From positions 224,001 to 288,000 of the forward strand of contig OZ241917.1 of assembly GCA_965203805.1 (NCBI GenBank): DNA of 64,000 bases, given 5' to 3'. The first letter of the stretch is position 1. Each line of letters begins with the position of its first letter. Below, in pieces: positions 12,662 through 32,503 of the stretch. The notes under the pieces are model-generated. The model was given only the letters and a program-made list of their open reading frames with translations, did no database searches and was not told where the DNA came from. The translations under genes were made by a program, and so were the position numbers. This DNA is from Candidatus Latescibacterota bacterium. Lineage in GTDB: Bacteria; Latescibacterota; UBA2968; GCA-2709665.

Positions 12662-12853
12662 ATCGAGAACTGTGCTTGAGTGAATCAGGTGCAACAAAAG
12701 CGGAAAATTGCCGAATTGTGGGGGGCCGGGGGCCGTCAATAAGCAACACGGGAGTCGGCAGGAATGCCGGAGTCCTTAGCGGGGTCGCCGGGTTGTGCCG
12801 AACAATGACTCGAATACATACCGTGATCGAACACCTGGAACCAGATTGCCGCG

Positions 12854-14566: not shown

Positions 14567-16889
14567 GTTTACTGTCGACACGCACTTGTTTCGCGAGTTG
14601 GGGGAGCTGTTGGTCGGGCGCGACTCAACCGCGCTCATCGAACTGATCAAGAACGCCTACGATGCCGATGCGACCGAGGTTACCGTCTATGGAGAGCGGC
14701 TCGATAGTCTAGATGAAGGCGGCATTCTGATTACCGATAACGGGGTCGGTATGACCGCGGATAATTTTGAGAACGGATTCTTGCGGATCGCTTCTAGGAT
14801 GAAAGAGCACGGAGAGCGGCGATCCAACGTATTTCAACGTCGTTACACCGGCGCCAAGGGAATCGGCCGACTCGCCGCCCATAAGCTTGCCAGAAAGCTC
14901 GACGTAGATAGCGTTCCGCGAGACTCTGAGCCCGAGGGGCTTCAAGAAATCGTGCACGCCGAGATAGATTGGGATAAGATCGAGGGGTACGAAATTCTGG
15001 ATGAACTTGACGCTACCGACGCGATTCGTCTGGAAACGAAGACGGTGCACGAAAACGCCGTTCCCGGCACGACGCTCGTTCTCTCTCGGCTGCGGCGAGT
15101 CTGGACAGAAGTTGAGCGTGCGAGGTTTTTTGCCGAGGTCCAATCTTTCGATCCTCCCTCATTCCTACGCGAGCCGCTCCCTCGATCAGTCGTCGAAAAA
15201 CCACTGCTGTTCGACACGCCGACTGTCCGGGACCATGGTAACGACGCTGCGGCCTCCTCATTCAAAGTGAATCTTGAAGGGGACTTTGCTGCTGGCGAGA
15301 ACTACTGGGCGCTCGTTGCCGAGGTTGCGACTTGGGTGCTGGAGATAACGGCAGTTGCCGGCAGCGACGAAGTGCATTTTGCCATTGCGCCAACGAAAAG
15401 AACACGCAAGGATAACCCGGAAGCGAGGGAGTACTACCATTCGATCCGTCATCCCACTCCCGGAAAGGGTCCGCATTTCGAGGCACGTATCCTGGTCAGA
15501 GAAGGGCGCGTTAGCGGCAGCCGGGACCAGCGGGTGTGGGCGACGCGAGTCAGCGGAATCCGAGTTTATCTGGAAGGTTTTCGCGTCTTACCCTATGGCG
15601 AGCAACAGGACGATTGGCTCTCGATTGACGCGGACTATACGAGACGCCCGCGGCAACTCGAGATGCTTCAAGAACTCCGTCTTGGTGCAGAAGCGACCGA
15701 CCCCGACGAGGGCCTCATTCGCGTGCCGAACAACAACTACTTTGGAGCGGTTTTTCTTATCCAGGAACGCTGTCCCAATCTTCGTGTTCTCGTGAACCGA
15801 GAGGGATTCATCCCCGAGGCCGGATTTGACACATTGGTGAAACTCGTGCGGACAGGAATCGATTTTTGCACGCGCGCGAGGGCAGCAGCGGCCCACGCGC
15901 GCCGCCAACGAAGGAAGGAAGACCGTCGTCGAGAACCAAAGGCCGCATTGGGTCAGACGGGAGAGGTAGAAGCCAGTGGAGCTACAGACGAGGCGATTGA
16001 GGAGCTTGCGGCGCCCAACCGGCTTCGAGGTGCGGTTCAGCTCATGAAAAAAGCTCGCGTGCACCTCAGCGCGGGAGATACCACAACAGCCGAAGTCACC
16101 ACTAACGCGGCCCTGCAAGAACTAGGCGAAGCGACTGATCTCGTCGAGGACCTGTGGTCCGAACGATCTCTCCTGCACATCCTTGCGTCCGTGGGAACTC
16201 AGATGGCCGCTTTCGTCCATGAAATCAACGCCTTGATCGGAGCGGCACAAACCATCGAACAGGCCCTGGAATGCGTCCTCAAAGAGAAAGGGCTGTCTCA
16301 AGAACGGCGCCGAACGCTAAGGGAGATAGTTACGGTCGCCACGGACCTGAAGCGTGGGCTGGAGCGCCAGGCTGCCTATCTGATAGACATCGAAACGCCC
16401 GACGCACGCCGCCGCCGTTCGCGCCAGCGTTTAAGCGAACGCTTCGAAGCTGCGGTTCGCCTCGTTAGGCATCAAGCGGACCGCCGAGACATTGACATCG
16501 ACAATCAGATTCCATCTGAATTAAGATCTCCCCCGATGTTTCCTGCTGAGGTTACGGCGGTATTTGCCAATCTCCTGACCAATGCGGTTAAAGCCGCTGG
16601 AGAGGATGGACGTATCCGTGCTTCGGCATCCAGTGAAGGCAATCAAGTACAGATTCGTATTCAGAACACCGGTGACGCCGTCAATCTTGATGAATCAGAG
16701 CGCTTGTTTAAGCCATTCGAGTCGACGACATTGGAAGTAGACTCAGTATTGGGTCAGGGAATGGGGCTGGGGTTACCGATTACACGGAACCTGTTGGATA
16801 ACTATGGGGCGTTAATAGATTTCGTCGATCCAACCGATCCGTTCGCGACGGCTATTGAGATCACCTTTCCAGGCAGGAGTCAACCTTAG
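14559..16889 (+). CDS. GHKL (MORC/HSP90-like) ATPase fused to a C-terminal histidine kinase
   Basis: N-terminal ELIKNAYDADA, DNGVGM, GAKGIGRL, GTT. C-terminal H-box FVHEIN, N-box NLLTNAVKA, F-box LFKPFEST, G2 GMGLGL. No obvious TM helices. Confidence 0.88.
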   Translation: MPKFTVDTHLFRELGELLVGRDSTALIELIKNAYDADATEVTVYGERLDSLDEGGILITDNGVGMTADNFENGFLRIASRMKEHGERRSNVFQRRYTGAKGIGRLAAHKLARKLDVDSVPRDSEPEGLQEIVHAEIDWDKIEGYEILDELDATDAIRLETKTVHENAVPGTTLVLSRLRRVWTEVERARFFAEVQSFDPPSFLREPLPRSVVEKPLLFDTPTVRDHGNDAAASSFKVNLEGDFAAGENYWALVAEVATWVLEITAVAGSDEVHFAIAPTKRTRKDNPEAREYYHSIRHPTPGKGPHFEARILVREGRVSGSRDQRVWATRVSGIRVYLEGFRVLPYGEQQDDWLSIDADYTRRPRQLEMLQELRLGAEATDPDEGLIRVPNNNYFGAVFLIQERCPNLRVLVNREGFIPEAGFDTLVKLVRTGIDFCTRARAAAAHARRQRRKEDRRREPKAALGQTGEVEASGATDEAIEELAAPNRLRGAVQLMKKARVHLSAGDTTTAEVTTNAALQELGEATDLVEDLWSERSLLHILASVGTQMAAFVHEINALIGAAQTIEQALECVLKEKGLSQERRRTLREIVTVATDLKRGLERQAAYLIDIETPDARRRRSRQRLSERFEAAVRLVRHQADRRDIDIDNQIPSELRSPPMFPAEVTAVFANLLTNAVKAAGEDGRIRASASSEGNQVQIRIQNTGDAVNLDESERLFKPFESTTLEVDSVLGQGMGLGLPITRNLLDNYGALIDFVDPTDPFATAIEITFPGRSQP

Positions 16890-16891
16890 TC

Positions 16892-18004
16892 ATGAAGAAG
16901 ATCAATAGGCCATCAATTCTTGCAATTGACGATAAACCTGATGAATTGATTCCTCAATTCGCTCTAGATCTGAATAGCCGCGTAGCGGCACGTGTAATTC
17001 ATCCTCAGGATGTAGATATATCGGACCTTGAAGATGCCGATCTGGTTCTGGTGGACTATCGCCTGGACAGTTGGCGGGAAAGGGACGTTCTCTCGACCGC
17101 TTCACTACAGCCAGCAACGGGAATGGCTCTAGCGACTATTCTGAGAGAGCTGGTAGATAAAAATGAAAGAGATAGATTGACGGCATTTGCGTTGCATACG
17201 GCTCATCTCGGCGATATTAGAGGCCGTTTTCCTTCAGGGACGGCTCAACACGTTCTTGCGCGTCTGAACAACCTGGAGTGGATTTTTCCTAAGACAGAAC
17301 CTAATCGTCATTACCAGATGCTTCTTCTTGCGAAGGCCGTACAACGACTTCCTGACCGATGGCCGGATAACTCGACTTCAACGGCAAGGCAGCTTCTCGA
17401 TATGGATGAGGACGACGATTCGTTTCAGAGTTGCTGGCACGATGTTCGAGACTGCCGGGTGCCAATTAATGAGTTGACGACAGGTGGACACGGCATCCTT
17501 TTCATACGATGGTTGCTTCATCAAGTATTGCCGTATCCCACCTTTTTGTGGGCAGAGCATTGGGTTGCGGCGCGCCTTGCAATTTCGGTTGGTGTCCTTC
17601 GCGATATACTGGCGGGAGATAGTCTTTTGGCTAAAGACTTGAAAGCCATGCGCTATTCTGGGATTCTGGCGGGATTTCTCGGAGTTAGGTGGTGGCGAGG
17701 TGCTCTCGAGGACTACGTTTGGAAATTATCAGGAGGATCCACGGCTGATGCACAACTATTGCGGAACGCCCTAGTCAAGCGTGCAGGGGTGGATTTGGAT
17801 CAAATTGACGCGCATCCTGCAGTCGTTTGTATGGACAGGGATTTACAGCCCACCGGCAAGTTTTTAACGCCAATGACCGCGATTGCTATCCACCCGGACC
17901 ACTGGCCCCCATTTGCTGACGCAGCCTGGATAGACATCGAAACCGTGAGACATGACACTACTTTGCTGTCCATGGTGGATCCTCTTGACCCTCGCCTTGA
18001 ATGA
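16892..18004 (+). CDS. Receiver (REC)-domain protein with unknown C-terminal domain
   Basis: ILAIDD, DLVLVDY (phospho-acceptor Asp), LHTAH, WIFPKT. Starts 2 nt after the kinase stop. Confidence 0.75.
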   Translation: MKKINRPSILAIDDKPDELIPQFALDLNSRVAARVIHPQDVDISDLEDADLVLVDYRLDSWRERDVLSTASLQPATGMALATILRELVDKNERDRLTAFALHTAHLGDIRGRFPSGTAQHVLARLNNLEWIFPKTEPNRHYQMLLLAKAVQRLPDRWPDNSTSTARQLLDMDEDDDSFQSCWHDVRDCRVPINELTTGGHGILFIRWLLHQVLPYPTFLWAEHWVAARLAISVGVLRDILAGDSLLAKDLKAMRYSGILAGFLGVRWWRGALEDYVWKLSGGSTADAQLLRNALVKRAGVDLDQIDAHPAVVCMDRDLQPTGKFLTPMTAIAIHPDHWPPFADAAWIDIETVRHDTTLLSMVDPLDPRLE

Positions 18005-18741
18005 AGATGAACAGGAAAATAATAATGGCTGGATTACGGTTTAAGGTGATTGAACTTGTACAGGAAACCAAAGCAATGATAACCATGGGAACAGGTTTCT
18101 TTGATTCGCGAACATCGTGGGCATTGGACCAGTTCCTGCGCGATCTCCAAAGGATTGGTAGTAGGGTACATACAGGAAGTTCTCGGTTGGTGCTACAATG
18201 CCTTCACACTAAACCGAGCGACAAATACGAGGCTGGTCGACGTCGAGGTGGTAAACGGATACACGCGGTAATTGCAGGCACTTGGGATCTGCGACCGTTA
18301 GAGAAGCGCGAGATAGAATTCTGCGGGATCGCTTCTACTAAGGTCGAATTGTACGCTTCGGACGATCCGAACGAACGCTTGGCAATGTGGCGTTTGGAAC
18401 TGGGTGCTGAGGACAGCCCGGGCTGCTACGTACACGCTCAGATACTGGGGGACACCGAAAAACCGCCATTCCCCAAATCACTACCGATTCCCAGATTACC
18501 TAGCCTCTTCGTCACTCCAATGAGCGCTGTAGAGTTCGTACTCTGCGAACTTTTCCAGGACGATTGGGCTAAGGCGATCGCTAAAAAGAGTCACGCGGCC
18601 GACGATTGGCGTGCGCTGCAAAAAAAGTGGCTCCATAAGCTGTTTTCATGGTACAGAGAACAAATAGAAAAAGCGGGTTCCTCTTCTTGGGTGACATTAA
18701 AGGAGGCGAAGCCAAAACACAATATGTTTCTTCCACGTTGA
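18001..18741 (+). CDS. Hypothetical protein, fourth gene of the MTase-HK-REC operon
   Basis: 246-aa ORF with ATGA overlap to the REC gene. Contains CYVHAQI...IPRLPS...TP. Confidence 0.7.
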   Translation: MKMNRKIIMAGLRFKVIELVQETKAMITMGTGFFDSRTSWALDQFLRDLQRIGSRVHTGSSRLVLQCLHTKPSDKYEAGRRRGGKRIHAVIAGTWDLRPLEKREIEFCGIASTKVELYASDDPNERLAMWRLELGAEDSPGCYVHAQILGDTEKPPFPKSLPIPRLPSLFVTPMSAVEFVLCELFQDDWAKAIAKKSHAADDWRALQKKWLHKLFSWYREQIEKAGSSSWVTLKEAKPKHNMFLPR

Positions 18742-18881
18742 ATTCCCAAGGTTGGCATGTCACGTTTGCCGCAGACAACTCCGTTCCAAGGAGTTGAGCA
18801 CCCAGATAGATATCGCTTGCGGACCCGATTTTTTAAGTCTCCTTTGCCGCACAGTGAAATTAGAGACTTCATCGTTAGTCA

Positions 18882-19106
18882 ATGAACAATAAGATAATCA
18901 GCAGGAATCCCGGCATCCTCTGCGAAACCCCCGTGTTCTCTGGGACCAGGGTGTCGATACGTATTCTGTTCGAATACTTGGAAGCAGGGGACCGTCTCGA
19001 AGACTTCCCTGACAGCTACCCCACGGCGTCACGCGATCAGGCGATTGAAGTACTCAAAACCGCGAAGATGACGCTGACCGGGAAATCGGATGAAGCTGTT
19101 GTTTGA
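18882..19106 (+). CDS. DUF433-family antitoxin
   Basis: ISRNPGIL..TPVFSGTRV...LEAGD.LEDF..SYP. Confidence 0.85.
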   Translation: MNNKIISRNPGILCETPVFSGTRVSIRILFEYLEAGDRLEDFPDSYPTASRDQAIEVLKTAKMTLTGKSDEAVV

Positions 19107-19222
19107 CAAGTCCCTGCCGATACCGCTCGAAGCTTACTTCCCGGGATCATTTGATATACTTACGGTTTAGCGCATGGACTGGACGAGGTAATCAAACGGT
19201 GAGCTACTGTACCTGCCGCTTC
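19090..19222 (+). pseudogene. DUF5615 PIN-like toxin remnant
   Basis: Reads MKLLFDKSLP...TV*RMDWTR*SNGELL, with in-frame stops at 19,168 and 19,189, then truncates. Confidence 0.75.
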
Positions 19223-19265
19223 CACGCACCGGTACGGCCGGACACAACCGCCGGGAATCTCGGAT

Positions 19266-22200
19266 GTGAAACTTCCCGAGGGCCGGGTGCCAGGTCGCCT
19301 GTTCTGCTGTGTAGTGTGGAATGCAGGTTTATTCAATACTCCAATTATCCATCCAGGAGGTATTATTACACTCTGTAATGAAGAGAATACCATTGCTGTT
19401 CTCCTGGCTACGTCCAACCGGACATATCTGCTGAAGAACCGGGCGCTTCCATCGATCGAGCAGCAGTCCCGTCCCCCGGCCCGGGTGATCATCGTCGATG
19501 ACTCGGGCGATGAGGCTGCCGCCGAACGAACCGGGCTGATAGTCCGGCAATGGCAACGGGCCCGAATGGATGTGGATTTTCTACACAACCGGCGCACGAA
19601 GGGGGCCGCAGGTGCGTGGAACTCAGGTTTAGATCACCTGCTGCGAACATGCTGTGACCCAAGACAACAGTACGTCGCAATCTTGGACGACGATGATCAG
19701 TGGCATCCCCACCATCTGCGCACATGTCTGGCGACCGCCGAGAAAAAAAGCCTTGACATGGTCGCGGCTCCGTTTCTTCGGGTGGAAGAGAACGCCAAGA
19801 CCCTCTTGACGTCTCCGCCAGCATCACTCGATGCGGCGAACTTCTTGGTCGGTAATCCCGGTATCCAAGGCAGTAATCTGGTTTGTCGCCTGAGCGTGTT
19901 ACTTGAAGCAGGTCTGTTCGATGAATCGCTGCCGAGTTGTACCGATCGCGATCTATGCATCCGCATCGCGGAGTTGCCCGGCGTTCGGTACGGTTCCACC
20001 ACGGAACCGACTGTCCATCACTTTGCTTGCGAGTCAAGACCTCGATTGTCAACACCCGGGTCGCACGACAAGGTCAGGGGGCTGGATCGATTCTTCCGCA
20101 AGTACAAGGGGCGTATGTCCGATGTCGAGAAAGTAGCGTTTTGCGCCCGCGCCGAGAGACTTTTCGGATGGAAGGAATCGCCGCAATCACCCGAAGCTGA
20201 AGGTCGTCTGCACGGCGGCCGACTGTCATCAGCCTCTCCAACACTGGCGCCACGTCAGGCACCGCCCCACTTGGTCGTCGGGGTGGTTGCCGACAATGCC
20301 AGGCACAAGGAGGTGGGAAATCTTCTCGACGATCTTCACGGGTTGGCCGATGCGACTGACTTATCGGGCTACGACGTCTTAGTCTTGGAGAACGGCGACG
20401 ATGGGACGCCCAGCGACGAACTACGTACACTAATCGAGCGCGAGCGTAGTAACGGTCTGAGTATCCATTTTATGGACCGTGCGCGGCATTTGCAAGATGC
20501 CACGAGCGGACGGGTTCTCGACGGTGGCGTGAGTAAGGAAGTTAGGTTGTCAATCGCCCATGCGCGGACGGTATTGCAGACGTACCTGTACGCATTCGCT
20601 AAAAGACGGCCAGGTGCGGTGGTTTGGATCATCGATGACGACATGCGGCTCGACCCGTTGTTCATTGAGAAAAATGGAAGCCTACAACGGCGAGCAAATA
20701 AGATTGCACCGATACTCCGAGAGCTTCGCCGACTCCGTGCCGGTGGGATCGTCGATATCGCAATCGGGACGTACACTGGAGCGGCGCCTTTGCCGTCTTT
20801 CGCAACCGTACGTGTTCAGGTCGTCGATTTGATCGCGTCGCTATGGTGGCTGGCGTCCCAGAAATCTACAGACTGCCTTCCGGATCGAGGGATGGAGAAC
20901 GCCACGTGGCGGTCCGGCCGGCGCGACTACTATTACGATCTGTCGCGCAAAGAGACAGATCGATTGGAAGCCCCGTTCTGGATCACGCCCGCGTTTCCCG
21001 GTGAAAAGGTCGGTTCAGCGTTCGTGCGCGTAGCTGGCATTGCGGAGCGGATCCTCGCTGGCGAGCAGGTCTTCCGGCCTCTTGCATTGGAGGCCAATCT
21101 CAATCCTCTCGATTTGATCGGTGAAGGGCTTCAGCGAGGCGGCAATACCTTTGTGCTCGATGTCGAATCTCTGAAGCTGGCCCCTAATCCATCACCGATC
21201 ATCGACGGGCGACCGAGCCGCCGTGCTGACATGATTTGGGCGTTGCTGCAGAAACGCTACTTCAGCCGTCAGATCGTCACCTTGCCGTTCGGCCTGTTTC
21301 ACGACAGATCACATGTCGCCGCCGCCGAATTGGATGTCGCCGACATCGTCGACGATATACGTGGATACGCGATGTTCTCAGCGCTTGAGGACATTCCTGG
21401 GGTATTCAAGATCACCACGGATGACCGGGGCATTCGTTTGTCCGAAGAAATGGTCGTTTGTTTCGCTCAGCGCGTCCACAAATACCTCGAAGAACGGCGG
21501 GCCGCATTTCGCCTTTCATTCTACCGAATCCGCGGTCTGATCCGTGTCTTACGAAGGCTAATGGACGACCCAGAAAATTGGTGGCAGGGAGTTGAATATC
21601 GAACTGCGGTAAGACAACTTCGGACGTTTTCCGAACGCTTGGCCGATTTCTACAAGATGGAGACTCTGAATCGCATTGAACGCGGAACTGAGGAACTTGA
21701 TGCACGCCGCATCGCCGAGTTTCTTGAACATCTGCCAATCGAAATTGAGAGCCATAGAAGGCGGCTTTCGGATATCTCGGCTCTGGTTCACAGCCTTGAG
21801 GGCGACAGGATCGCGAACGCCAAGGCCATTGCCACGCGACTGGCAGTACCCATCGGTGTGCTTAAGGTATTGGGATGCGGCATGGAGGGAGTAGCCCTCA
21901 CCGATGGCACCAGGGTATTTAAAGTCTTCGATTACTGGTGGAAGCGTTCTCACAAACTCTCGGCCCCTGCGTTCCTGCGTTCGCTTGTCGGCGCCTGGAA
22001 GGACACGCACGCTCTCTATCCGCTTCATGATTTCGTCGAGTCGGGACATCAAAAGGTGCTGACGTACTCTTATGAAGTCAGCACACCTTACAAGGGCGGT
22101 CACGGGCCCTCCATGGTTAATCTGGTCGCCGAATGTCGCCGGCATGGTATCGTTTGTCGAAACATCGATCCAGACAACCTGCGTGTAGTTAATGGACGGA

Positions 22201-24647
22201 TTCGGCTGATCGACTACGGTTCGGACATCCACCCATTCGATGAAGATGAATTCCATACGATGTGCCAGCGCGCTTGGCTATCATATCGCTGGGCTGACCG
22301 TTCAAACTTAAAAAACATCATGCGCGAGGCGCTGACGGACGAGAAAATACCTGAACTCGATGGTTTTGAGCGGTTCTACGAGGCAATTCGAAAGGTTACA
22401 GGTCAGCATGAAACGCCGAAGGATGTTGTGCTGAATTTTGTTGAGAAAGCCGAGCGAATTCTCGACTACGGGTGTGGCAAGGGATGGCTTGCCCGAGAAA
22501 TTTCGGACATGGGCAGGGATGTCTTTGGTTACGATCCTGGAGAAGCATACAAGTCGCGTTGGGAGTCACTCTGTCGGAAACGTGAAAACCTACGATTTGC
22601 GGATGATCTGAGTGACGCGTTGGCGGCGGGTCCATTTGATCTTGTTGTTTGCCGTCGTGTGCTTTGCACGATTGAAGACAACGAAGAATTTAGGACGATT
22701 CTCAGCGATTTGCGAAATCTGGTCAGCGAGAGTGGTCGGGTATTGGTTACCGTTTGTGACCCAAATTTCACGTTCGGTGGTTCGACACCTGAGGCTGACC
22801 GTGAACTGCCCCCTGATGCCCGTTACGAGAGTGTCTTCAGGTGGCTCAAGAGGGTGCGCGAAACCGGCAGGGTGCGCCTCGAGGTGCACCGACCCGAGCG
22901 GATGCTTCGGCGAGAATTTGCTCTGGCAGGTCTGGCGGTGTGTCGCCGTGTCGAAGTACCTACAATTGATCTTGAGCGATTCGAACCATCGTCGGACCAG
23001 TTAGTCTTTGAACTCAGCCCAATAGCGCCACTGCCCGGCGAGGTCACGCTAATGATCAAGGCATGTGGCATGGAAGCTGCTACTTTGGATGTGCAGGTTC
23101 GCCACCTTGTTTCACAACTGGAGACCTCGAGGGCTTTTACCGAGCGAATTCTGGTAATCGACTCCCGTGAAGATGAATTCCTTAGGCAACACACCATTGG
23201 GAACTTGGCCGATTTGTATAATGCGGCGCGTCGTTTGGAGCAAGCAGGATGGATCGACCGGATTGTTGACGGGCCGAATGACGTCGACGACACGGTATTG
23301 CTAAACAAGCGGTGGTTCGGAATTCCCTGTCGTACGGCTCACGCTTACAGCGGCGCTCAGATCGCCTCTACGCTGAACGGATTCGATGCATGTTCCACCC
23401 GGTACGTCCTCCAATTGGACGTTGACGTCATGGTTGGCCGACTGGACCGTAGTCATGATTATCTAGCGGAAATGCTTTCAGTGTTGCAGCGCGATCCGGA
23501 AGCGGTCACGGTATCTTTCAATGTAGCGATGGACCATGATCGGCCCTATACGGAAGCGGGAGAGACGGGGGCGTGGCGTGTGGAGGTGCGCGCAGGATTG
23601 ATAGATCTCCAACGTCTTTTCGACGCTCGGCCGCTACCGAACCGGCTCCGCGGAGAACGTCTGGAATTTCACTGGTACCGAGCCCTAGATCGGCAGATCG
23701 CGCAGGGTAGGGGTCGTTCATATCGCGGCGGCGACCGTCGAACCTACTTCGTGCACCCGCCCAATGTTCGCAAGCGCAATATTACTGAGTGGTTCGCAAT
23801 ACTCGACCGCATTGAACACGGTGTGGTCCCGTGCGTTCAATTTGGAAACGTGGATTGGGTCGGCGACAAGGTGAGCTGGATGGGACCGCAGCGGTTAGAA
23901 CAGTTCGTCTTTGTGGTATCGGGTCGTAACGTGCAGCCGGGGCGGTTTCGTCGTTGCATCGAGTCATTGGCTAGACAGAAAGGGGCACAATGGGGCGCCG
24001 TGGTTATTGATGACGGATCGGACCCGATGTTTGCCGAACACTTTGAGATCGCTTGCCGGCCGCTCGTAGAGCGTTGCACGGTCATTCGTAACCGCCGTCG
24101 TTGTGGATTGCTCGTCAACATGGTAACTGCAATTAGGCAGTTATGTGCCGATCCCGAATCGGTCATTGTAACTCTCGATTCTGACGATGCCCTGATCGGC
24201 GATCGCGTTCTGGAAAGACTTGCAGCAGAGTACGATCGGGGAGCCGACGTGACAGTTGGTACAATGCTGCGGATCGACAAGGACGCCAATTATCCGGTTT
24301 GTTTCGATCAGCCGCGGCGACACCGTGGAGGAAACGTTTGGCAGCACCTTCGGTCGTTCAAAAAACGGCTTTTCGATGCCATTCCTGACGATGCACTTCG
24401 GCTCGATGGAGACTATATCGACCTCGCCAATGACTGGGCGTACATGCTGCCGATTGTGGAGATGGCAGACATGCCCGTACATATTGCTGAACCACTTTAT
24501 CTTTACGAACCTTCAAGGATTTGGAAAGGAGCTGATCGAGCACTTCGCGAGGAAGTCATCGCACGCATCGCCGCCAAGGACACGGTGTACCAAGACGAGA
24601 CGTGCAATGCGTACAGCGAAAAAATCGACGCAAGGGTCAGGCGATAA
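19266..24647 (+). CDS. Giant multidomain protein: GT2 + GT-A-like + protein-kinase-like + SAM methyltransferase + GT-A-like + GT2
   Basis: IIVDDS/AILDDDD (~19,686); VLEN/WIIDDD (~20,634); LGCGMEG..VFK, RNIDPDN, IDYG (~21,870-22,220); ILDYGCGKG (~22,460); LQLDVD (~23,410); VIDDGS/LDSDD (~24,000-24,190). True start uncertain. Confidence 0.8.
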   Translation: MKLPEGRVPGRLFCCVVWNAGLFNTPIIHPGGIITLCNEENTIAVLLATSNRTYLLKNRALPSIEQQSRPPARVIIVDDSGDEAAAERTGLIVRQWQRARMDVDFLHNRRTKGAAGAWNSGLDHLLRTCCDPRQQYVAILDDDDQWHPHHLRTCLATAEKKSLDMVAAPFLRVEENAKTLLTSPPASLDAANFLVGNPGIQGSNLVCRLSVLLEAGLFDESLPSCTDRDLCIRIAELPGVRYGSTTEPTVHHFACESRPRLSTPGSHDKVRGLDRFFRKYKGRMSDVEKVAFCARAERLFGWKESPQSPEAEGRLHGGRLSSASPTLAPRQAPPHLVVGVVADNARHKEVGNLLDDLHGLADATDLSGYDVLVLENGDDGTPSDELRTLIERERSNGLSIHFMDRARHLQDATSGRVLDGGVSKEVRLSIAHARTVLQTYLYAFAKRRPGAVVWIIDDDMRLDPLFIEKNGSLQRRANKIAPILRELRRLRAGGIVDIAIGTYTGAAPLPSFATVRVQVVDLIASLWWLASQKSTDCLPDRGMENATWRSGRRDYYYDLSRKETDRLEAPFWITPAFPGEKVGSAFVRVAGIAERILAGEQVFRPLALEANLNPLDLIGEGLQRGGNTFVLDVESLKLAPNPSPIIDGRPSRRADMIWALLQKRYFSRQIVTLPFGLFHDRSHVAAAELDVADIVDDIRGYAMFSALEDIPGVFKITTDDRGIRLSEEMVVCFAQRVHKYLEERRAAFRLSFYRIRGLIRVLRRLMDDPENWWQGVEYRTAVRQLRTFSERLADFYKMETLNRIERGTEELDARRIAEFLEHLPIEIESHRRRLSDISALVHSLEGDRIANAKAIATRLAVPIGVLKVLGCGMEGVALTDGTRVFKVFDYWWKRSHKLSAPAFLRSLVGAWKDTHALYPLHDFVESGHQKVLTYSYEVSTPYKGGHGPSMVNLVAECRRHGIVCRNIDPDNLRVVNGRIRLIDYGSDIHPFDEDEFHTMCQRAWLSYRWADRSNLKNIMREALTDEKIPELDGFERFYEAIRKVTGQHETPKDVVLNFVEKAERILDYGCGKGWLAREISDMGRDVFGYDPGEAYKSRWESLCRKRENLRFADDLSDALAAGPFDLVVCRRVLCTIEDNEEFRTILSDLRNLVSESGRVLVTVCDPNFTFGGSTPEADRELPPDARYESVFRWLKRVRETGRVRLEVHRPERMLRREFALAGLAVCRRVEVPTIDLERFEPSSDQLVFELSPIAPLPGEVTLMIKACGMEAATLDVQVRHLVSQLETSRAFTERILVIDSREDEFLRQHTIGNLADLYNAARRLEQAGWIDRIVDGPNDVDDTVLLNKRWFGIPCRTAHAYSGAQIASTLNGFDACSTRYVLQLDVDVMVGRLDRSHDYLAEMLSVLQRDPEAVTVSFNVAMDHDRPYTEAGETGAWRVEVRAGLIDLQRLFDARPLPNRLRGERLEFHWYRALDRQIAQGRGRSYRGGDRRTYFVHPPNVRKRNITEWFAILDRIEHGVVPCVQFGNVDWVGDKVSWMGPQRLEQFVFVVSGRNVQPGRFRRCIESLARQKGAQWGAVVIDDGSDPMFAEHFEIACRPLVERCTVIRNRRRCGLLVNMVTAIRQLCADPESVIVTLDSDDALIGDRVLERLAAEYDRGADVTVGTMLRIDKDANYPVCFDQPRRHRGGNVWQHLRSFKKRLFDAIPDDALRLDGDYIDLANDWAYMLPIVEMADMPVHIAEPLYLYEPSRIWKGADRALREEVIARIAAKDTVYQDETCNAYSEKIDARVRR

Positions 24648-24898
24648 GGATTATTTTCGTTGTAGCGGTTATTTTGCGGGAACCATGCCGCGAACTCTTC
24701 TGTTATGATTCAGACGAAAAATGGGCTTTTTCGGTTTATGTATAAGCCATAAGTTGGACTCAATAGATGGAGGAGTCCGTATCGAAGAAGCGGTAGCAGT
24801 AAAGCCTATTGCCGCAAGCTATCACGGGGTTTTTATAGTTGATATAATAATCCTGTGTAGGAGGAGCGAGATATTTCAATTATTCTACGTTCGAACAG

Positions 24899-25177
24899 AT
24901 GCTAATCAAACTTACTATCCGCATATCTAGACGCTTCCGAGAGGTTGAGATCGAATTGGGGAGTCCGGCGGGCTTCATCGGACCCAACAACTCGGGCAAG
25001 ACCTTGGCCATGCAGGGGCTGGCGTTATGGGACATTGGGCTGATGCGCTGGAATGAGAAGCGCTCCGGCAAGAGTTCACCCGAGAAACCCCCGGGAGTCA
25101 CGATATACCGGTGTGAACTCGTTCACTGCGTCCCCGAACCGAAATTCGGATTGAACTCGACGCAATTTCGGATGTAG
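24899..25177 (+). pseudogene. Truncated AAA/ABC ATPase (N-terminal fragment only)
   Basis: IKLTIR..RRFREVEIEL...FIGPNNSGKT Walker A. Ends after ~90 aa with no Walker B. Confidence 0.7.
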
Positions 25178-25208
25178 CCGATAGTGCGATTTCTGCAGGA
25201 GATTCAAC

Positions 25209-26936
25209 ATGAATCTTACAGCCTTCAGTATCGCTAACTTCAAGGCCTTCGCCGATGCTCAACGCATTCCGCTACGGCCCATCACATTGATCTACGGCGC
25301 TAACAGTGCCGGAAAATCGAGTGCGATTCATGCGCTCGCACTTGCGCATCACGCTATCGAGACCGGAGACCTCGACGTACAGCGGACCCGTATCGGTGGC
25401 GAGTCCATTGATCTTGGCGGTTTCCAACAGTACGTACATCGGCGTGAACACACCAGAGACGTCGAACTCGGTTTCGAATTGGATCCAACCGGCCTCGTCG
25501 ATCGCCTTCCGGATTCGCTGGACTCGACGTACAAGATCGAGGCGGAACTGACAATCGGAGAAGCGGATGGCGGCGTAAGAACTGCATCATCAGGTAGTCG
25601 TACTCGCGGCGTGTGCCTTCATCGCTTTGTGCTGAACATTGATGATGCAGAGTTGCTTTCCATGAGCGCCAGGCGTGGGGGGCTGATGGGCATGAATCGA
25701 ATTGACCACGAACATCCGGTCCTTCGGGATCTTTTTCGTCGCCAACTGTTGCAGGTTACGGAGAGTCGAGAAAATCTCGATACAGACGTCGCCAATCTCC
25801 ACCAAATGCTCAGGCTGCTGGTCCCCAATATCACGGCCACGTCCGGAGGAATATTCCCTCGAATAAGAAAGGAGTTTGCCGGTAATGATCTGTATGGGAG
25901 CAGGCGGGAGGACACCGTACGTGCAATCGTACCAATCGACGCGATAAACGATCTCATGGTGGGACTTGGCACGGCCCTTGAGGACGAATTAGATAGACTC
26001 CGCTACCTTGGCGCGTTAAGATCGTATCCTCCCAGACATCATGTCTTTTCACAGCACGATGATCCAAACAGGTACGCTGGTGGCGGCTATGCCTGGGACG
26101 TAGTTCGTGATAATCCGGAAGTGCGTAGACTCGTTAATGAATGGCTGGGTGACTCAGAACGGCTGAAGACACCTTACGAACTCCAGGTACGTGATTTGCT
26201 ATCGACAGACATGGTGTCCCGCGATGTGCGAGGAAAGATTCGCAAGGCGCTACACGATCTTCTAACGTCACTTCTCAGCCGAATGGACGCACAGGAACTC
26301 ATCAAATTGAAGGTCCTGGCTGATCGTCTTGCCGAGCGAATCGTAGAACTTGACCCGGAGGATGAGGAGGATTTGATCCCCGATATTGAGGAACTCGTAT
26401 CGTCGTTAAGCGACGAAGACCAGGTGTCCGAGCGGTGGGTTGAGGAGATGGTAGCGGCGCGGTCTGAAGCCCTAAAACAGCTCGTTCTCATCGACAAACG
26501 CACCGGCACCCCGATTAGTCACCGTGACGTGGGAATCGGTGTGAGCCAGGTGCTGCCGGTTCTGGTCTCGGCCTACGCATCGAAAAACAAACTACTGGCA
26601 ATCGAACAGCCGGAAATCCACCTCCATCCGGCGCTTCAGGCCGAGTTGGGCGATGTATTTCTGCAGTCGGCGTTGGGCGACAGCGACAATACATTCCTCA
26701 TTGAAACACACAGTGAACACTTGCTGCTGCGCATCATGCGACGCATGCGGGAGACGGACGCTGGCGAATTGGATGATTCATTGCCGGACGTGCATCCGGA
26801 CGACGTGATGGTACTATTCGTCGAGCCAGACGGACCACAAAGTATCGTCCGCCAGATGCCCCTCAACGAACGTGGAGAGTTGGTCAAGGCCTGGCCTGGT
26901 GGCTTTTTCGAGGAAGGAATAAGGGAAATCTTCTGA
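25209..26936 (+). CDS. ABC-type ATPase, AAA_15/AAA_21 with DUF3696 C-terminus
   Basis: NFKAF, GANSAGKS, DVGIGVSQVLP, IEQPEIHLHP, IETHSEH, WPGGFFEE. Confidence 0.9.
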   Translation: MNLTAFSIANFKAFADAQRIPLRPITLIYGANSAGKSSAIHALALAHHAIETGDLDVQRTRIGGESIDLGGFQQYVHRREHTRDVELGFELDPTGLVDRLPDSLDSTYKIEAELTIGEADGGVRTASSGSRTRGVCLHRFVLNIDDAELLSMSARRGGLMGMNRIDHEHPVLRDLFRRQLLQVTESRENLDTDVANLHQMLRLLVPNITATSGGIFPRIRKEFAGNDLYGSRREDTVRAIVPIDAINDLMVGLGTALEDELDRLRYLGALRSYPPRHHVFSQHDDPNRYAGGGYAWDVVRDNPEVRRLVNEWLGDSERLKTPYELQVRDLLSTDMVSRDVRGKIRKALHDLLTSLLSRMDAQELIKLKVLADRLAERIVELDPEDEEDLIPDIEELVSSLSDEDQVSERWVEEMVAARSEALKQLVLIDKRTGTPISHRDVGIGVSQVLPVLVSAYASKNKLLAIEQPEIHLHPALQAELGDVFLQSALGDSDNTFLIETHSEHLLLRIMRRMRETDAGELDDSLPDVHPDDVMVLFVEPDGPQSIVRQMPLNERGELVKAWPGGFFEEGIREIF

Positions 26937-27866
26937 GTGCCGCTTCTTGCCGATTACGCAATTACGCCTGATGTGTTCGACCCCACGTCTTACTCCAACG
27001 AGGAAATCGGACGTCTGCACCTCCGTGAAATTGGCGAAGTAATGAGGACCGAGGGTGTCGTTCGCGATCTCCGTTCTGGGGAATGGCGCCGACTCTTCGC
27101 TTCCGACGTACGGCCCTGGCATCGAACCGGTAAGGAATTGGTAAGGAAACTTGCGGCTCAAGGAAGACTGATTGAATTCCAACCGGCATTGGGTAACGTC
27201 CCTGCGGATGATGCCGGCTGGTGCGCAGAAGCGCTCGCGACACAGGCGGTGATGTCCCTCACGGGTGGCATCATTGCGACGGAGCCGGTGAAAGACCTCT
27301 ATCGGTCAGAATCGTTGGTAGCACGCATCGACCGGCTTGACAGCGCGGACTGGTGGCAGAATCGCAGTTCTTCCGTTCGTCTTCCCCGCAGCCTGACGGC
27401 TTATCAGCAGCATCTCGAACCGATTCTCCGCTGTGCGAACTCACTGCAGTTCATCGATCCACACCTGGATCCGACGTTAGGACGATACAGGGAATTCGGG
27501 GACCTCCTTGATGTTATTGGTGCGCCAGTGATCGAAATTCACCGCGTGTGTTACTATGGGACCGGCAGCAGTCGCAGGATTCCCGATCTCGCCGAGTGGG
27601 AGAAACACTTCCGCGCCGGGCTTGATGCTTCCCTACGATCCGCAAATCTCCGGGCAGAGATCTTCATTTGGGATAACTTCCACGACCGTTACCTGATCAG
27701 CAATCTGATTGGCATCTCGCTGCCGAATGGCTTCGATACGACGAGCATCCCTAATGACAGAACCACCTGGACCCGCCTTGGTAGGCGCGACCGCGACGAC
27801 ATACAGCGCGAGTTCGATCCCGCCAGCAGACACCATACACTACATGGGCAATTCAGCATACCGTAG
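26937..27866 (+). CDS. Putative PLD-like (HDR-motif) nuclease partner of the ATPase
   Basis: GTG start directly abuts the ATPase stop. FIDPHL and FHDRYLIS resemble the DPY/HDR motifs of MIT_C-like PLD-fold domains. Confidence 0.55.
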   Translation: MPLLADYAITPDVFDPTSYSNEEIGRLHLREIGEVMRTEGVVRDLRSGEWRRLFASDVRPWHRTGKELVRKLAAQGRLIEFQPALGNVPADDAGWCAEALATQAVMSLTGGIIATEPVKDLYRSESLVARIDRLDSADWWQNRSSSVRLPRSLTAYQQHLEPILRCANSLQFIDPHLDPTLGRYREFGDLLDVIGAPVIEIHRVCYYGTGSSRRIPDLAEWEKHFRAGLDASLRSANLRAEIFIWDNFHDRYLISNLIGISLPNGFDTTSIPNDRTTWTRLGRRDRDDIQREFDPASRHHTLHGQFSIP

Positions 27867-27876
27867 GCCAGTGTAA

Positions 27877-30354
27877 ATGCCCGATACGGAGCTCGACAGA
27901 CTCGCCGCTCAGATCGCACGCGAGGAAGCACGGCTAAGAGAAATCGAGGCCGAACAGACCGCCGCCAGGCAGCGTCTGAAGGCACTATCCGCGAAGCTCG
28001 GCATGCTGCAGCAGTCGGTTTCCGGCGCCCCGGTTTCGCCGCAAACAAACGCCCAGAAGGTCGCCCTCTTCCGGTCTCTATTCAGAGGCCGAGCCGACGT
28101 TTTCCCCAGGCATTGGCAGAACCCGAAAAAGCAAACCACTGGCTACGCCCCGGCATGCGCCAACGAATGGGTGCGTGGGGTCTGTGAAAAACCACGCGTC
28201 AAGTGTGGCGAGTGCCCCAATCAGGCCTTCATCACTGTGACGGATCAAATGATCATCGATCACCTCAGAGGTCGTCACATCGTTGGCGTTTATCCGTTGC
28301 TGGAAGACGAGACGTGCTATTTCCTCGCTCTCGACTTCGACAGGGCGGACTGGAAGAATGATGTGGCCGCATTCCGAAACACCTGTAAGCATTTCGGACT
28401 GAATGCGGCAGTGGAGCGTTCCCGGTCCGGCAAGGGAGCCCACGTGTGGTTCTTCTTTGCCGAGCCGGTTCCCGCGAGTGAGGCGCGCAGACTGGGATGC
28501 TACCTGATCACCGAGACGATGGCGCACCGGAACGAGCTTCCGATGAGCTCGTACGACCGTCTGTTTCCAAGCCAGGACACGATGCCGCAAGGTGGTTTTG
28601 GCAATCTGATCGCCCTGCCGTTGCAGTACGAGGCCAGGCAGCAGGACAATACCGTGTTCGTCAATGAGTCATGGGACCCGTACCCGGACCAATGGGCGTA
28701 CCTGGCGGGCCTTCCCAGGATCGACCGATCTCGAGTGAAGGAGCTGGCGAGAGACGCGGTAGAGCGAGGAAAGGTTGTCGGCGTTCCTATCGCGCAGGAA
28801 ACGAAGGGAACAAGAAGCCAACTCAGCCTTGAGGAGGCTTCAAGGAGGACAATCGCTATAAATAAAACGCTTCCGCCCCGTGTGTGCGCTGTTCTCGGAG
28901 CGGACATCGTGGTGGACGCAACGAGTTTGCCACCGGTGCTGATCGATCAGATCAAACGCCTCGCCGCTTTCGAGAATCCGGAGTTCTACAAGAAGCAGGC
29001 AATGCGTCTGTCGACGGCGCTGACGCCGCGCGTAATCAGCTGTGCCGAAGTGGCAGGCAACCGGATCGGCTTGCCCCGAGGTTGTCTGCCCGCACTTGAG
29101 GATTTGATCGATAAGCACGATATCGAATTCGTAATCGATGATCAAAGATTGGATGGCGAGGCAATTGGTGTTGAGTTTCGCGGTGAGTTGACCGTCATTC
29201 AGCAGCAAGCGGTTCGTGCGTTGCTCGCCCACGATATCGGTGTCTTTGTCGCTCCCCCTGGCAGTGGTAAGACGGTTTTGGGCACGCACCTGGTAGCCGA
29301 CCGTGGACGCAGCGCGCTCGTCCTTGTGCACCGTACGCAGCTCATTGACCAGTGGAGAACTCAACTGTCCGTTTTCCTCGATTTGAATCCGCGTGAGATC
29401 GGACAGATCGGCGGAGGCAGGCGAAAAACCACGGGAATTGTCGACGTCGGCATGCTGCAGAGCCTCGTGCGACGCGACAGGGAGACCCTGTCGGGGTACG
29501 GACACGTGATCGTGGACGAATGTCATCATGTCCCCGCCGTCTCTTTTGAAAAGGTAATGCGGACGGTGCAGGCACGGTATATAACCGGGCTCACTGCAAC
29601 GCCTCAGCGGAGGGACGGTCATCATCCGATCCTGCATTTCCAACTCGGCCCGATCCGCTTCTCGGTCGATTCCAGGCGCGCGAAGGCAGCGCAGTGAATG
29701 GAACATCAGGTCATAATAAGACAGACGGCCTTTCGGCTTGAGGACGAGTCGTCTGGATCCAGCATCCAGGAGATCTACTCGAAACTCGCAAGCGACCGAA
29801 ATCGCAACGAGATGATTCTGGACGATGTCATTGGCGCCCTCGAGAAAGGAAGGTCTCCCATTCTGCTCACGGAACGCAGAGACCATCTCGACTACTTCGT
29901 CGGCCAACTGCACAGCGTCGCTCGGCACCTGGTGGTACTTCAGGGAGGAATGGGTGTGAGACAGCGGGAGGGAGTCCGTCAGCAATTGAAGGACATTCCT
30001 GATGACGAGGAACGTCTCATCCTGGCAACCGGCCGCTTTATCGGTGAAGGCTTCGATGATTCCAGACTCGACGCGTTGTTCCTTGCAATGCCGATCTCGT
30101 GGCGAGGCACCCTTGTGCAATACACGGGCCGGCTTCATCGCAGGCACCCGTCCAAGTCCGAGGTTCGCATATACGACTACGTGGACGCCGATGTGCCGAT
30201 GCTCGCAAAGATGTTTAAAAAACGACGAAAGGGATACCGGGCTATGGGCTATGATCTGCGCAAGCCCGACAACGACGAAAGTGTTGGAAGCGGCGAATAC
30301 GTTGTTGAATACGACCGGGAAGTGATCCAGAGTCTCGGACGTGAGACGTTCTGA
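27877..30354 (+). pseudogene. Archaeo-eukaryotic primase (TOTE-type) + SF2 helicase fusion interrupted by an in-frame TGA at 29,695
   Basis: AEP motifs LALDFD, ERSRSGKGAHVW, GFGNLIALPLQ. Helicase motifs PPGSGKT, DECHH, GLTATP. The same frame resumes at ATG 29,698 with GEGFD and QYTGRLHR. Confidence 0.85.
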
Positions 30355-30439
30355 TTTACCGATCTGAGCGGCTTCGCCTGCGAGACCGGACTCGACGCGG
30401 GGAAAATGGGCGAAACTGAAAACATCACACAGTGCGCAT

Positions 30440-30476
30440 TTGACGTGATCCCTGCTTAGCTATATGCGTAGCTAAG
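30440..30476 (+). promoter_or_regulatory. Putative promoter and Phd operator
   Basis: TTGACG at 30,440 and a perfect inverted repeat CTTAGCTA-N6-TAGCTAAG (30,455-30,476) upstream of the antitoxin. Confidence 0.6.
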
Positions 30477-30509
30477 AAAGTTATCGACCGTTTTTGAGGG
30501 AGTCACACA

Positions 30510-30743
30510 ATGTCAGTAGTCAACGTACATGAGGCCAAAACACAGCTATCCCGTCTCCTGGCGAGGGCTGAGGCGGGTGAAGAGATCGTCATTGCCCGTA
30601 ATGGCGACCCGGTTGCAAGGCTCGTGCCCTGCGAAAATTGTCCCGGTGTCCGGCAGTTTGGCGCCAAGAAGGGCCTGATTGTGGTCGACGACAGTTTCTT
30701 CGACCTACTTCCGGAAGACGAATTGGCTGCCTGGGAGGGATGA
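30510..30743 (+). CDS. Phd/YefM-family antitoxin
   Basis: VNVHEAKTQLSRLLARAEAGEEIVIARNGDPVARLVP. Confidence 0.92.
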   Translation: MSVVNVHEAKTQLSRLLARAEAGEEIVIARNGDPVARLVPCENCPGVRQFGAKKGLIVVDDSFFDLLPEDELAAWEG

Positions 30744-30747
30744 TTGC

Positions 30748-31136
30748 GTGCGCATTCTACTCGACACCCATGCCTTTCTCTGGTGGCTCGCCGGCAGTGA
30801 TCGTTTGTCGGGGATTGCCCGCGATGCAATTGCCGACCCGGGTAAAGATGTCCTCATCAGCGCGGCGTCCGCGCCTGGGAGATCGCAACGAAGCATCGCC
30901 TCGGGAAGCTTCCGTGGGCCGACGTGGTCGTACATGACTTCGCCGGCTGCATTGCGGGCCAGGGATTTCAGGAATTGCCGATTACCGTCCGAAACGGCGA
31001 ACGCGCCGGTCGGCTGCAGGGATTGCATCGCGACCTCTTCGACCGGATGCTGATCGCACAGGCCCTCACCCTCGATGTCCCCCTTGTTTCGATAGAGACA
31101 CGATTCGATCGATATGGCGTTAACCGCTTCTGGTAG
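30748..31136 (+). pseudogene. vapC: VapC (PIN) toxin, frameshifted
   Basis: RILLDTHAFLWW...ISAASA, then 2 extra nt (GC, ~30,871), then WEIATKHRLGKL...HRDLFDRMLIAQA in another frame. Confidence 0.85.
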
Positions 31137-31632: not shown

Positions 31633-31661
31633 TTGACATGTAACTATTTAATGGTTACGTT
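31633..31661 (+). promoter_or_regulatory. Sigma70-like promoter with operator for the RelE/HigBA pair
   Basis: TTGACA-N17-TACGTT, overlapped by the inverted repeat GTAAC-N9-GTTAC. Confidence 0.5.
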
Positions 31662-31663
31662 GG

Positions 31664-32264: not shown

Positions 32265-32503
32265 CTATCGACGTAACGCCAAGACTTTCAACGAAATGAA
32301 GAAAATAGCCGTTGTATTCAATCGTCCTGTCGGTGTAATCCGTCTGTTGCATGCGGCGGATCGATATCTGGAAAAACGCTAAGGGACCAATTCCCGGATG
32401 ACGAAGAAGAATTGTACGCATCGTCTGCGGAAGTGACGAGGTCTTCCATTTGCCATGGTGCGTATATACGGCTTGCTCAAGTATCTCAATCGAGGATTGA
32501 AAT

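Follow-up and report, generated by a model that had tools for sequence, protein, structure and literature searches.

One open frame with six modules

The window analysed here is a 64,000-nucleotide stretch of the genome of a Candidatus Latescibacterota bacterium (assembly GCA_965203805.1, contig OZ241917.1, positions 224,001 to 288,000 of the forward strand), and the gene in question is an open frame at 19266..24647 (+) that is 1793 codons long as a maximal open reading frame (ORF), has GTG as its first codon and encodes a giant enzyme. An initial annotation made from the letters had proposed a single polypeptide of six modules, namely four GT-A-like domains, a protein-kinase-like domain and a class I S-adenosylmethionine (SAM) methyltransferase, and this parse is supported by Pfam, by profile searches and by AlphaFold2 models. 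The modules follow one another in the order GT2, GT75-like, kinase-like, SAM methyltransferase, GT-A and GT2, all six with invariant cofactor-binding motifs:

19383..20165 (+), residues ~40-300: module 1, a GT2-type GT-A glycosyltransferase with an invariant DDDD (Pfam PF00535/PF13641)
20259..21779 (+), residues ~332-838: module 2, GT75-like, in three parts (GT-A, core, C-terminal helical domain) and with an invariant DDD
21837..22406 (+), residues ~858-1047: module 3, a small protein-kinase-like domain
22407..23024 (+), residues ~1048-1253: module 4, a class I SAM-dependent methyltransferase (Pfam Methyltransf_23/11/25)
23028..23894 (+), residues ~1255-1543: module 5, GT-A glycosyltransferase-like, with D1385 and D1387 (DxD) invariant
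23895..24590 (+), residues ~1544-1775: module 6, a GT2-type GT-A domain with D1638, D1640 and D1641 invariant (Pfam PF00535, E 1e-28)

The giant gene is real and intact. The initial annotation had worried that the fusion might be an assembly artefact, and this is ruled out by a continuous frame that aligns without a break over 5.3 kb to the closest relatives, two congeners (L001 and L002), and by three sequencing runs that contain 98-100% of the sampled words of the gene; the full-length fusion is, moreover, conserved in many genomes. None of the listed read sets carrying the gene is an RNA run. Relative to the two congeners the ratio of nonsynonymous to synonymous substitution rates (dN/dS) is 0.226 and 0.175 for the whole gene and 0.115-0.294 by module, and this value of less than 0.3 in every module indicates that all six are maintained by purifying selection in this clade. 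The true start is probably later than 19266, likely within 19311-19395, which would give a protein of ~1755-1780 residues, as homologues begin 5-10 residues ahead of the conserved first beta-strand ('VAVLVAT'), DNA similarity to L001 and L002 begins only at 19395 (blastn) and residues 1-30 are without conservation in the profile of the family. The interval 19311-19395 contains zero in-frame ATG, GTG or TTG codons, and a GGAGG lies at 19355-19359. The initial annotation saw no evident transmembrane segments, and a hydropathy scan agrees: no convincing membrane segment was found in the protein, the highest 19-residue Kyte-Doolittle mean being 1.58, within the kinase N-lobe.

The two halves of the protein were modelled by AlphaFold2 from 61-sequence alignments (N-half, residues 37-862, pLDDT 92.0 and pTM 0.93; C-half, residues 850-1775, pLDDT 92.9 and pTM 0.89), residue invariance was scored over the 61 aligned family members, and folds were compared by Foldseek and VIA-align. 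Pfam detects GT2 at both termini and the class I methyltransferase at residues 1060-1186, whereas modules 2, 3 and 5 become visible only via profiles and models. All four acidic motifs on which the initial annotation had based its four GT-A-like domains are present (DDDD at 141-144, DDD at 457-459, DVD at 1385-1387 and DSDD at 1638-1641), with their aspartates invariant in 61/61 sequences, but the second domain has a GT75-like mutase fold and is not a plain transferase.

Module 1 is most similar in VIA-align to AvpGT (Z 22.3, rmsd 3.3, 229 aligned, 23% identity) and WrtF (Z 22.3), followed by the A2 domain of K4CP (Z 20.6) and SpsA (Z 20.5). AvpGT, a Streptomyces nucleoside 3'-O-glucosyltransferase (PMC11959488; PDB 9jma/9jn3), is its best single-domain match by identity and also the best glycosyltransferase match by sequence profile (E 1.1e-5). 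As the GT2 fold is generic and WrtF, SpsA and TarS/TarP lie within 1-3 Z units of AvpGT, acceptor specificity cannot be read from this match. Module 6, the most conserved of the six (dN/dS 0.115-0.124), aligns to WrtF (Z 21.0, rmsd 2.2, 209 aligned), RmlT (Z 20.2), TarS (Z 20.1) and TarP (Z about 20). The module 5 profile found no meaningful sequence match in the PDB, and the ESM Atlas leads for this module are GT2-like clusters. Jointly, modules 5 and 6 (residues ~1255-1775) align to K4CP 147-658 (Z 22.1, 409 aligned, rmsd 21). The top Foldseek matches of both halves are in fact PmHS2 and K4CP (E 7e-12 for the N-half and 1.3e-17 for the C-half), the enzymes of P. multocida and E. coli K4 that likewise have two tandem GT-A domains per chain, aligned over 500-600 columns. 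At 0.2-0.35 the TM-scores for these matches are low, owing to a different orientation of the domains; VIA-align gives Z 20-22 with rmsd 15-21, and identity is 13-17%.

Module 2 aligns to MtdL over model residues 296-802 (Z 22.9, rmsd 3.3, 306/371 aligned) and to rice UAM2 (Z 18.9). GT75 enzymes are described as having a GT-A domain, a novel core and a C-terminal helix domain with a DDD motif, as converting NDP-pyranose to NDP-furanose and as autoglycosylating on arginine (PMC9937993). The fold match to MtdL and UAM2 takes in all three parts, and the metal-binding DDD (D457-D459) is invariant in the 61 sequences, so that module 2 shares the three-part fold and the motif with MtdL, Hyg20 and plant UAM; unlike them it has no detectable sequence similarity to the family and is embedded in a six-module protein. 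ESM Atlas leads for this module are DUF6271 (0.94) and RGP (0.90). Module 2 is therefore predicted from its modelled fold to be either an NDP-sugar pyranose/furanose mutase or a self-glycosylating GT75 domain. In the compact model (pTM 0.93) its helical stretch (residues ~726-838) is built from six helices, 6-41 residues in length, and because the MtdL alignment takes it in, we regard it as part of the GT75-like module. A coiled-coil molecular ruler was considered for this stretch and rejected on the indirect evidence of the model, where it aligns with the C-terminal helix domain of MtdL and its longest helix has 41 residues.

If module 2 is of the self-glycosylating kind, the giant enzyme might be a protein glycosylation system, either self-primed on a GT75-like arginine, as in glycogenin or RGP, or directed at a host or phage protein, with the kinase-like domain as a binding or regulatory module. 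GT75 members are reported to autoglycosylate a conserved arginine (PMC9937993), module 2 has invariant arginines after the DDD (R516, R604, R652/R653 and R681, besides a near-invariant H679), and a self-primed chain would explain how one gene can work in very different hosts. These residues are, however, at most candidate counterparts of the nucleophilic arginine (R159), the substrate arginine (R257), the base aspartate (D260) and the Mn-binding histidine (H287) of MtdL; autoglycosylation is, in the account of PMC9937993, uncharacterised in bacterial GT75 members; and the recurrent SLOG, NADAR/GTP cyclohydrolase II (GCHII), phosphatase and deacetylase partners described below fit small-molecule chemistry better. 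We consider protein glycosylation improbable.

The kinase-like module keeps the glycine loop (G-x-G, G870 and G872), the ATP-binding lysine (K886), the Mg-binding asparagine (N971) and the DFG-type aspartate (D983), all invariant, and its profile (residues 858-1050) matches CK2 alpha' (E 6.8e-6), TTK and CaMKII (E about 1e-5) and MRCK/ROCK (E 1e-4) in the PDB. The position of the HRD catalytic aspartate, in contrast, is N966, an asparagine in 61/61 members, and the alignment with CK2 alpha' sets 'crN' of the family opposite 'HRD' of the kinase. The protein-kinase-like domain of the initial annotation thus stands as far as its ATP and Mg residues are concerned and loses its catalytic aspartate; judged by these residues it should bind ATP-Mg with the usual general base absent. 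WbdD-like phosphorylation is not assured, given the invariant asparagine at this position. As an ATP site kept where the catalytic base is lost, the module would be a natural example of its kind.

The methyltransferase was correctly recognised at the outset, as it has a Pfam match, an invariant motif I (D1067/G1069/G1071/G1073) and an invariant D1090, that is, the GxGxG and the acidic residue after strand 2 that mark class I enzymes. It aligns to ToxA (Z 20.9), XrdM (Z 20.5) and GSMT (Z 20.1), resembling small-molecule N/O-methyltransferases (ToxA, GSMT and UbiG), and its profile also matches the methyltransferase of WbdD (E 1.3e-4). A search for shorter kinase-methyltransferase relatives found 37 proteins, nearly all of them fragments of the giant-enzyme family.

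A widespread family and its partner genes

A word-indexed protein search found 435 relatives at E<=0.001 among 8000 scored candidates, and ~110 of the 120 homologues listed are 1,665-2,089 residues long and 50-93% identical, with the same Pfam set in all. Across 185,579 species genomes, 226 stretches match the search patterns and 139 encode a relative of the giant enzyme, the best 80 of which, mostly full length and at 35-85% identity, were kept as loci (L numbers). The bacterial carriers among these 80 are Latescibacterota, Gemmatimonadota, Alpha- and Gammaproteobacteria, Planctomycetota, Dehalococcoidia, Verrucomicrobiota, Myxococcota and Actinomycetales, and the archaeal ones Methanomicrobiales, Thermoplasmata and Methanomassiliicoccaceae. 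Among 40 relatives of the genome of the window, by comparison, a full-length copy is present in three, two of the same genus (G003 and G006) and one of another family (G040). With this scattered distribution the giant gene is a patchy, horizontally spread accessory gene. A relative is carried by 3 of 2.9 million viral contigs, with a large serine integrase nearby in 2/3, and no PHROGs family was found for the protein at E<=1e-5. Literature searches (supplements excluded) found no description of the family.

The context of the relatives was read from up to three ORFs of at least 110 residues per side with Pfam at E<=1e-5, in 75 loci; left out were L022, L026, L061 and L076, which have no flanks, and L028, which is near-identical to L027. 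A clear defence or mobile-element gene lies within three ORFs in 31/75 loci by manual reading, a raw count and no measure of enrichment, and nine further loci have ambiguous helicases or nucleases. Defence genes are generally a few per cent of all genes. The defence neighbours include AAA_15/21 ATPases, STAND/NACHT/NB-ARC proteins, SIR2, HEPN, PIN, BrxB and a BrxL-like ATPase, Cas GSU0053/54, SNF2 with Eco57I/MmeI methylases, C5 methylases with Vsr and a MORC-like ATPase, type I restriction-modification (R-M) systems, GmrSD, Mrr, AbiEi, Fic and an OLD-plus-UvrD pair, and the mobile ones are integrases, resolvases, transposases and a relaxase. At one locus (L070) a phage portal gene flanks the giant gene and its SLOG partner on one side and a terminase gene on the other.

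The initial annotation had pointed to the pairing of kinase and methyltransferase that caps O-antigen chains in WbdD. Following this lead, the giant enzyme could polymerise an envelope polysaccharide and carry its own chain terminator, working on a lipid-linked acceptor with host export machinery and serving, for example, to mask a phage receptor. The known systems of this kind, ORF6 of K. pneumoniae O7 and WbdA/WbdD of E. coli O9a, combine a polymerase with a methylphosphate terminator in the synthesis of ABC-transporter-dependent O antigens (PMC11231755, PMC3482155), and like them the giant enzyme unites GT2 modules, a kinase and a SAM methyltransferase in one polypeptide or complex (PMC11231755). 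The profile match to the WbdD methyltransferase and the likeness of the tandem GT-A pairs to the capsule polymerases K4CP and PmHS2 also speak for such a role. Unlike in ORF6 and WbdD, however, the kinase-like module comes before the methyltransferase and the two are placed between two GT-A pairs, and three of the features that define those systems fail, namely the coiled-coil ruler (the helical region aligns with the MtdL helix domain and its longest predicted helix has 41 residues), the catalytic aspartate and the wzm/wzt locus. In ORF6 this aspartate is essential, D441A being inactive as described in PMC11231755. Genes for wzm/wzt, wzx/wzy, kps or an initiating polyprenyl-phosphate transferase were found within three ORFs in 0/75 loci, nor were they found in the window, whereas K4CP and PmHS2 work in kps capsule loci. 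The protein is without a membrane segment, and the family is spread over bacteria and archaea as an orphan cassette, with carriers in Dehalococcoidia and Actinomycetales as well as in diderm bacteria. An envelope polymerase is on this evidence improbable; of the proposed WbdD-type capping the methyltransferase is present, but neither the kinase catalytic aspartate nor an export locus is, and homologues do not lie mostly in ordinary polysaccharide loci, as the initial annotation had allowed they might.

A second possibility raised at the outset was DNA hypermodification, with glycosylated, phosphorylated and methylated bases as one arm of a modification-based defence. The restriction-modification genes around the giant gene in the window and around several relatives are in keeping with it, but no DNA-binding, base-flipping or DNA-methyltransferase-type domain was detected in the giant protein, its methyltransferase resembles enzymes of small molecules (ToxA, GSMT and UbiG), no nuclease partner is conserved across the loci of the relatives, and many loci have no restriction genes nearby. 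We find this explanation scarcely credible.

To find partner genes, ORFs of at least 80 residues were called greedily by length in the 80 loci and the window (n=81) and then clustered. The sole widely shared neighbour is a protein of ~195 residues whose gene follows the giant gene immediately on the same strand, in many cases overlapping its stop codon. It is present in 55/81 loci (tblastn), and for 2 of the 26 loci without a match the sequence extends <600 nt downstream. It belongs to SLOG cluster 4 (LDcluster4, PF18306; Pfam E about 1e-31) and keeps the GGxGG and GGGxGTLSE-type glycine motifs. The SLOG clusters were reportedly defined by Burroughs et al. in Nucleic Acids Research in 2015. 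The nearest solved relatives of the partner are the Chlamydomonas molybdenum cofactor (Moco) carrier protein (6y01, E 2.8e-28), Thermotoga 1rcu and, at a greater distance, the LOG phosphoribohydrolases (E 1e-12), which is where the usual partner of the family belongs, and it has no match in PADLOC. The SLOG partner is absent from the window, from its whole genome (G000, E<=0.001) and from the congeners G003 and G006; the same search detects SLOG in G040, G041 and G042.

Other accessory parts recur. The giant protein has a C-terminal histidine-phosphatase (His_Phos) extension in 14 loci, and a NodB-type deacetylase is found in 9 loci, fused to SLOG in five (L003, L011, L012, L013 and L015), joined to the giant protein in two more and encoded separately in the remaining two. 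A UDP-glucose dehydrogenase adjoins the giant gene in L057, L064 and L075 and an NAD-dependent epimerase in L003, L032 and L057 (5 loci in total); UDP-GlcA and UDP-HexNAc are the donors of the capsule polymerases K4CP and PmHS2. The lack of partner genes noted in the initial annotation thus holds for this genus but not for the family, where SLOG is the usual partner and a phosphatase, a deacetylase or sugar-nucleotide enzymes also occur at times. Beside a SLOG-less giant gene, at L009, a 1424-residue protein with NADAR, DprA-like and two YAcAr SLOG domains is encoded three ORFs away (17952-22226, -), and a SIR2_2 protein lies on the other side. At L052 a 154-residue DUF1937/DUF4406 protein, of a family that we take to be nucleoside 2-deoxyribosyltransferase-like, directly follows another SLOG-less giant gene on the opposite strand (15634-16098, -).

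Module 2 also occurs outside the giant enzymes. A search of 1.84 billion representatives with its profile found 723 proteins at E<=0.001, of which 395 reach E<=1e-30, and Pfam was run on 28 of the 150 listed. Among these 28, eight stand-alone relatives of 469-500 residues have no Pfam family at E<=0.01, and others are fused with GT2, with an asparagine synthase, an N-acetyltransferase and GT2, or with a tetrapyrrole-type methylase; one (P0302) joins a GT75-like domain to GTP cyclohydrolase II and NADAR. The same theme appears at L077, in Aliiroseovarius zhejiangensis KCTC 42443, where an opposite-strand gene encodes GT2, module 2, GTP cyclohydrolase II and NADAR in one protein (27% identity to the N-half of the window protein over 742 residues, E 2e-48; hhalign 99.8% for module 2) and stands head to head with a gene for the C-half only (kinase-like, methyltransferase and modules 5 and 6). 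In this split variant an asparagine-synthase gene, the GCHII-NADAR gene and the C-half-only gene are grouped at 5043-12685 beside a type I R-M system. As the Aliiroseovarius is cultured, the split form is open to genetic study.

SLOG/LOG and GCHII-NADAR are nucleotide-ribose N-glycosidase or ligand-binding modules. SLOG and NADAR are also described as NAD/ADP-ribose-centred domains of conflict systems (PMC7824862). The recurrence of SLOG/LOG and GCHII-NADAR is the main reason why we favour a nucleotide- or phosphoribosyl-derived acceptor or ligand.

Proposed chemistry and its weighing

The explanation that we consider best, and to which we give about equal belief and doubt, is a soluble, self-contained glycan assembly line that is horizontally mobile as a one- or two-gene cassette and acts in the cytoplasm, possibly on a nucleotide-derived acceptor. 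In such a scheme the GT75-like module would convert an NDP-pyranose to an NDP-furanose donor, or glycosylate its own arginine, and the three DxD transferase modules would add sugars stepwise to a cytoplasmic acceptor, the last two resembling in their layout the tandem domains of K4CP and PmHS2, both glycosaminoglycan polymerases. The kinase-like module would bind ATP, phosphorylation not being assumed as its catalytic aspartate is an asparagine, and the methyltransferase would cap or decorate the product. In most relatives the product or acceptor may be handled by the downstream SLOG protein, a relative of LOG and the Moco carrier, with a histidine phosphatase or NodB deacetylase added in some. 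It is this set of partners, together with the paralogous N-half fused to GCHII and NADAR, that points to a nucleotide- or phosphoribosyl-derived acceptor. The copy in the window would be cargo of a variable defence island that lacks the SLOG partner.

We hold the outline of this chemistry with moderate confidence, and it holds independently of any role in conflict. Such a role, whether anti-phage or inter-microbial, is possible but rather doubtful; a defence role is plausible, unproven. As to the product, the context favours a nucleotide-linked one over DNA modification or receptor masking. A more ambitious version, which we regard as unlikely, is a new kind of conflict system, in which one polypeptide, as a rule accompanied by a SLOG carrier or N-glycosidase, would make an oligosaccharide that contains a furanose and bears a methyl or phospho cap, built on a nucleotide-derived acceptor of a phosphoribosyl or ADP-ribose-like kind. 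The product would be an antiviral or antimicrobial nucleotide glycoside or a signal, and the cassette would work in bacteria and archaea alike.

Several observations weigh against the assembly line and its place in conflict. By its sequence the giant enzyme appears to be an uncharacterised, mobile, six-module glycan assembly enzyme, with no substrate, product or phenotype known for any member. The GT75 link is one of fold, as module 2 has no match to Pfam PF03214 (RGP) at E<=1 and its profile no meaningful sequence match in the PDB, and its catalytic arginine and histidine residues are at most putative. The likeness of module 1 to AvpGT (23% identity) does not fix the acceptor, and the kinase-like domain may, given its asparagine, be inactive. 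Conservation of 35-93% identity across phyla is unusually high for a defence gene, and ~35/75 loci have only housekeeping genes or genes of no assigned function as neighbours. No known anti-phage system model of PADLOC-DB v2 was recognised for the giant protein, whose weak matches are at the level of domains (mad2, E 6e-10, to the methyltransferase; PD-T4-6, E 1e-4, to 48 residues of the kinase, 949-996). Finally, as the window copy and those of two congeners are without SLOG, conclusions drawn from the two-gene form may not extend to this copy.

Should one portable protein indeed make a glycosylated nucleotide or some other soluble glycoside, this would represent new chemistry in microbial conflict or symbiosis, and the enzyme, if the proposed steps are true, would be a compact biocatalyst in which donor isomerisation and methylation are combined with three glycosyl transfers. 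With this family a GT75-type mutase fold would be documented for the first time within a prokaryotic multi-enzyme protein; the known bacterial GT75 members act, according to PMC9937993, in actinomycete antibiotic pathways. Cultured carriers allow these predictions to be tested, namely Roseovarius sp. A-2, Roseovarius autotrophicus, Rubrivivax sp. A210, Salinisphaera dokdonensis and Pseudotabrizicola sediminis, and Aliiroseovarius zhejiangensis for the split form.

The defence island around the giant gene

The giant gene lies in a defence island with the following content:

1..40387: the defence island, which holds the giant gene; >40 kb, left edge beyond the window
2-8958: Hma-like DUF1156 methylase, helicase and DUF499 ATPase
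9069-10028: TIR protein
11477-16889: type I S subunit, Eco57I-like methylase and BbrUII/HgiDII-like GHKL enzyme
18882-19106 (+): DUF433 antitoxin gene (Pfam), followed by a 26-codon ORF at 19090-19170
19266-24647 (+): the giant gene
24898-25177 (+): 5' fragment of an AAA_15/21 (GajA/AriA-like) ATPase gene, 92 codons, with PADLOC matches to the GajA/AriA N-terminus
25209-26936: AAA_15/21 ATPase
27877-30354: AEP-TOTE primase-helicase
32504-34478: HEC-01 pair
34832-39093: SbcCD-like pair

The defence island of the initial annotation is thus borne out, its neighbours being mostly, and not all, defence or toxin-antitoxin genes; three island ORFs (370, 246 and 309 residues; 16892-18741 and 26937-27866) have no match in Pfam, NCBIfam or PADLOC. 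The right edge lies at ~40387, where similarity to the core ABC-transporter genes of the relatives starts and the GC content rises from 0.52-0.58 to ~0.60-0.65. This core flank follows the giant gene at 6.8-8.9 kb in L001 and L002 and at 15.7 kb in the window, and from these differing distances the island content appears to be variable within the genus. ABC-transporter genes were considered as part of the system and set aside, as the ABC_tran cluster (14 loci) is the conserved core flank at the island edge in the window, L001 and L002.

The fragment of the ATPase gene carries a trace of rearrangement. Window positions 24898-25123 match L001 8044-8269 and L002 8053-8278 at 79-80% (blastn, 226 nt; 85 residues at 73% by tblastn), and in L001 and L002 the intact AAA_15/21 ATPase gene lies immediately upstream of the giant gene, whereas the fragment in the window lies downstream. 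The permutation suggests that an [ATPase-giant] unit was once duplicated in tandem or passed through a circular intermediate. On the other side of the giant gene, the 26-codon ORF at 19090-19170 looks like a truncated partner toxin of the DUF433 antitoxin. The lineage-specific 5' end of the giant gene begins just past this DUF433/26-codon remnant (18882-19170).

With such broken neighbours as the 26-codon toxin remnant and the ATPase fragment, a replaced 5' end and a SLOG partner missing genome-wide and in two carrying congeners, the copy in the window might itself be a remnant in decay, its partner genes lost and its function gone. Yet the frame is intact over 5.3 kb with all motif residues kept, and dN/dS is 0.175-0.226 relative to two congeners with each module below 0.3. 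Solo forms are, moreover, common, the SLOG hit being missing in 26/81 loci. Decay is thus a very improbable explanation.

Two further observations concern other genes of the island. The AEP-TOTE primase with the N-lobe of a ResIII helicase (27877-29697) ends one base before a 218-residue ORF with the helicase C-lobe (29698-30354), and 27877-30354 is either a split gene or one interrupted by a stop codon. A regulator gene of HTH_3 type is present twice, at 10305-10753 and 31830-32264, with 77% and 83% DNA identity to one gene that adjoins the giant gene in L001 and L002.

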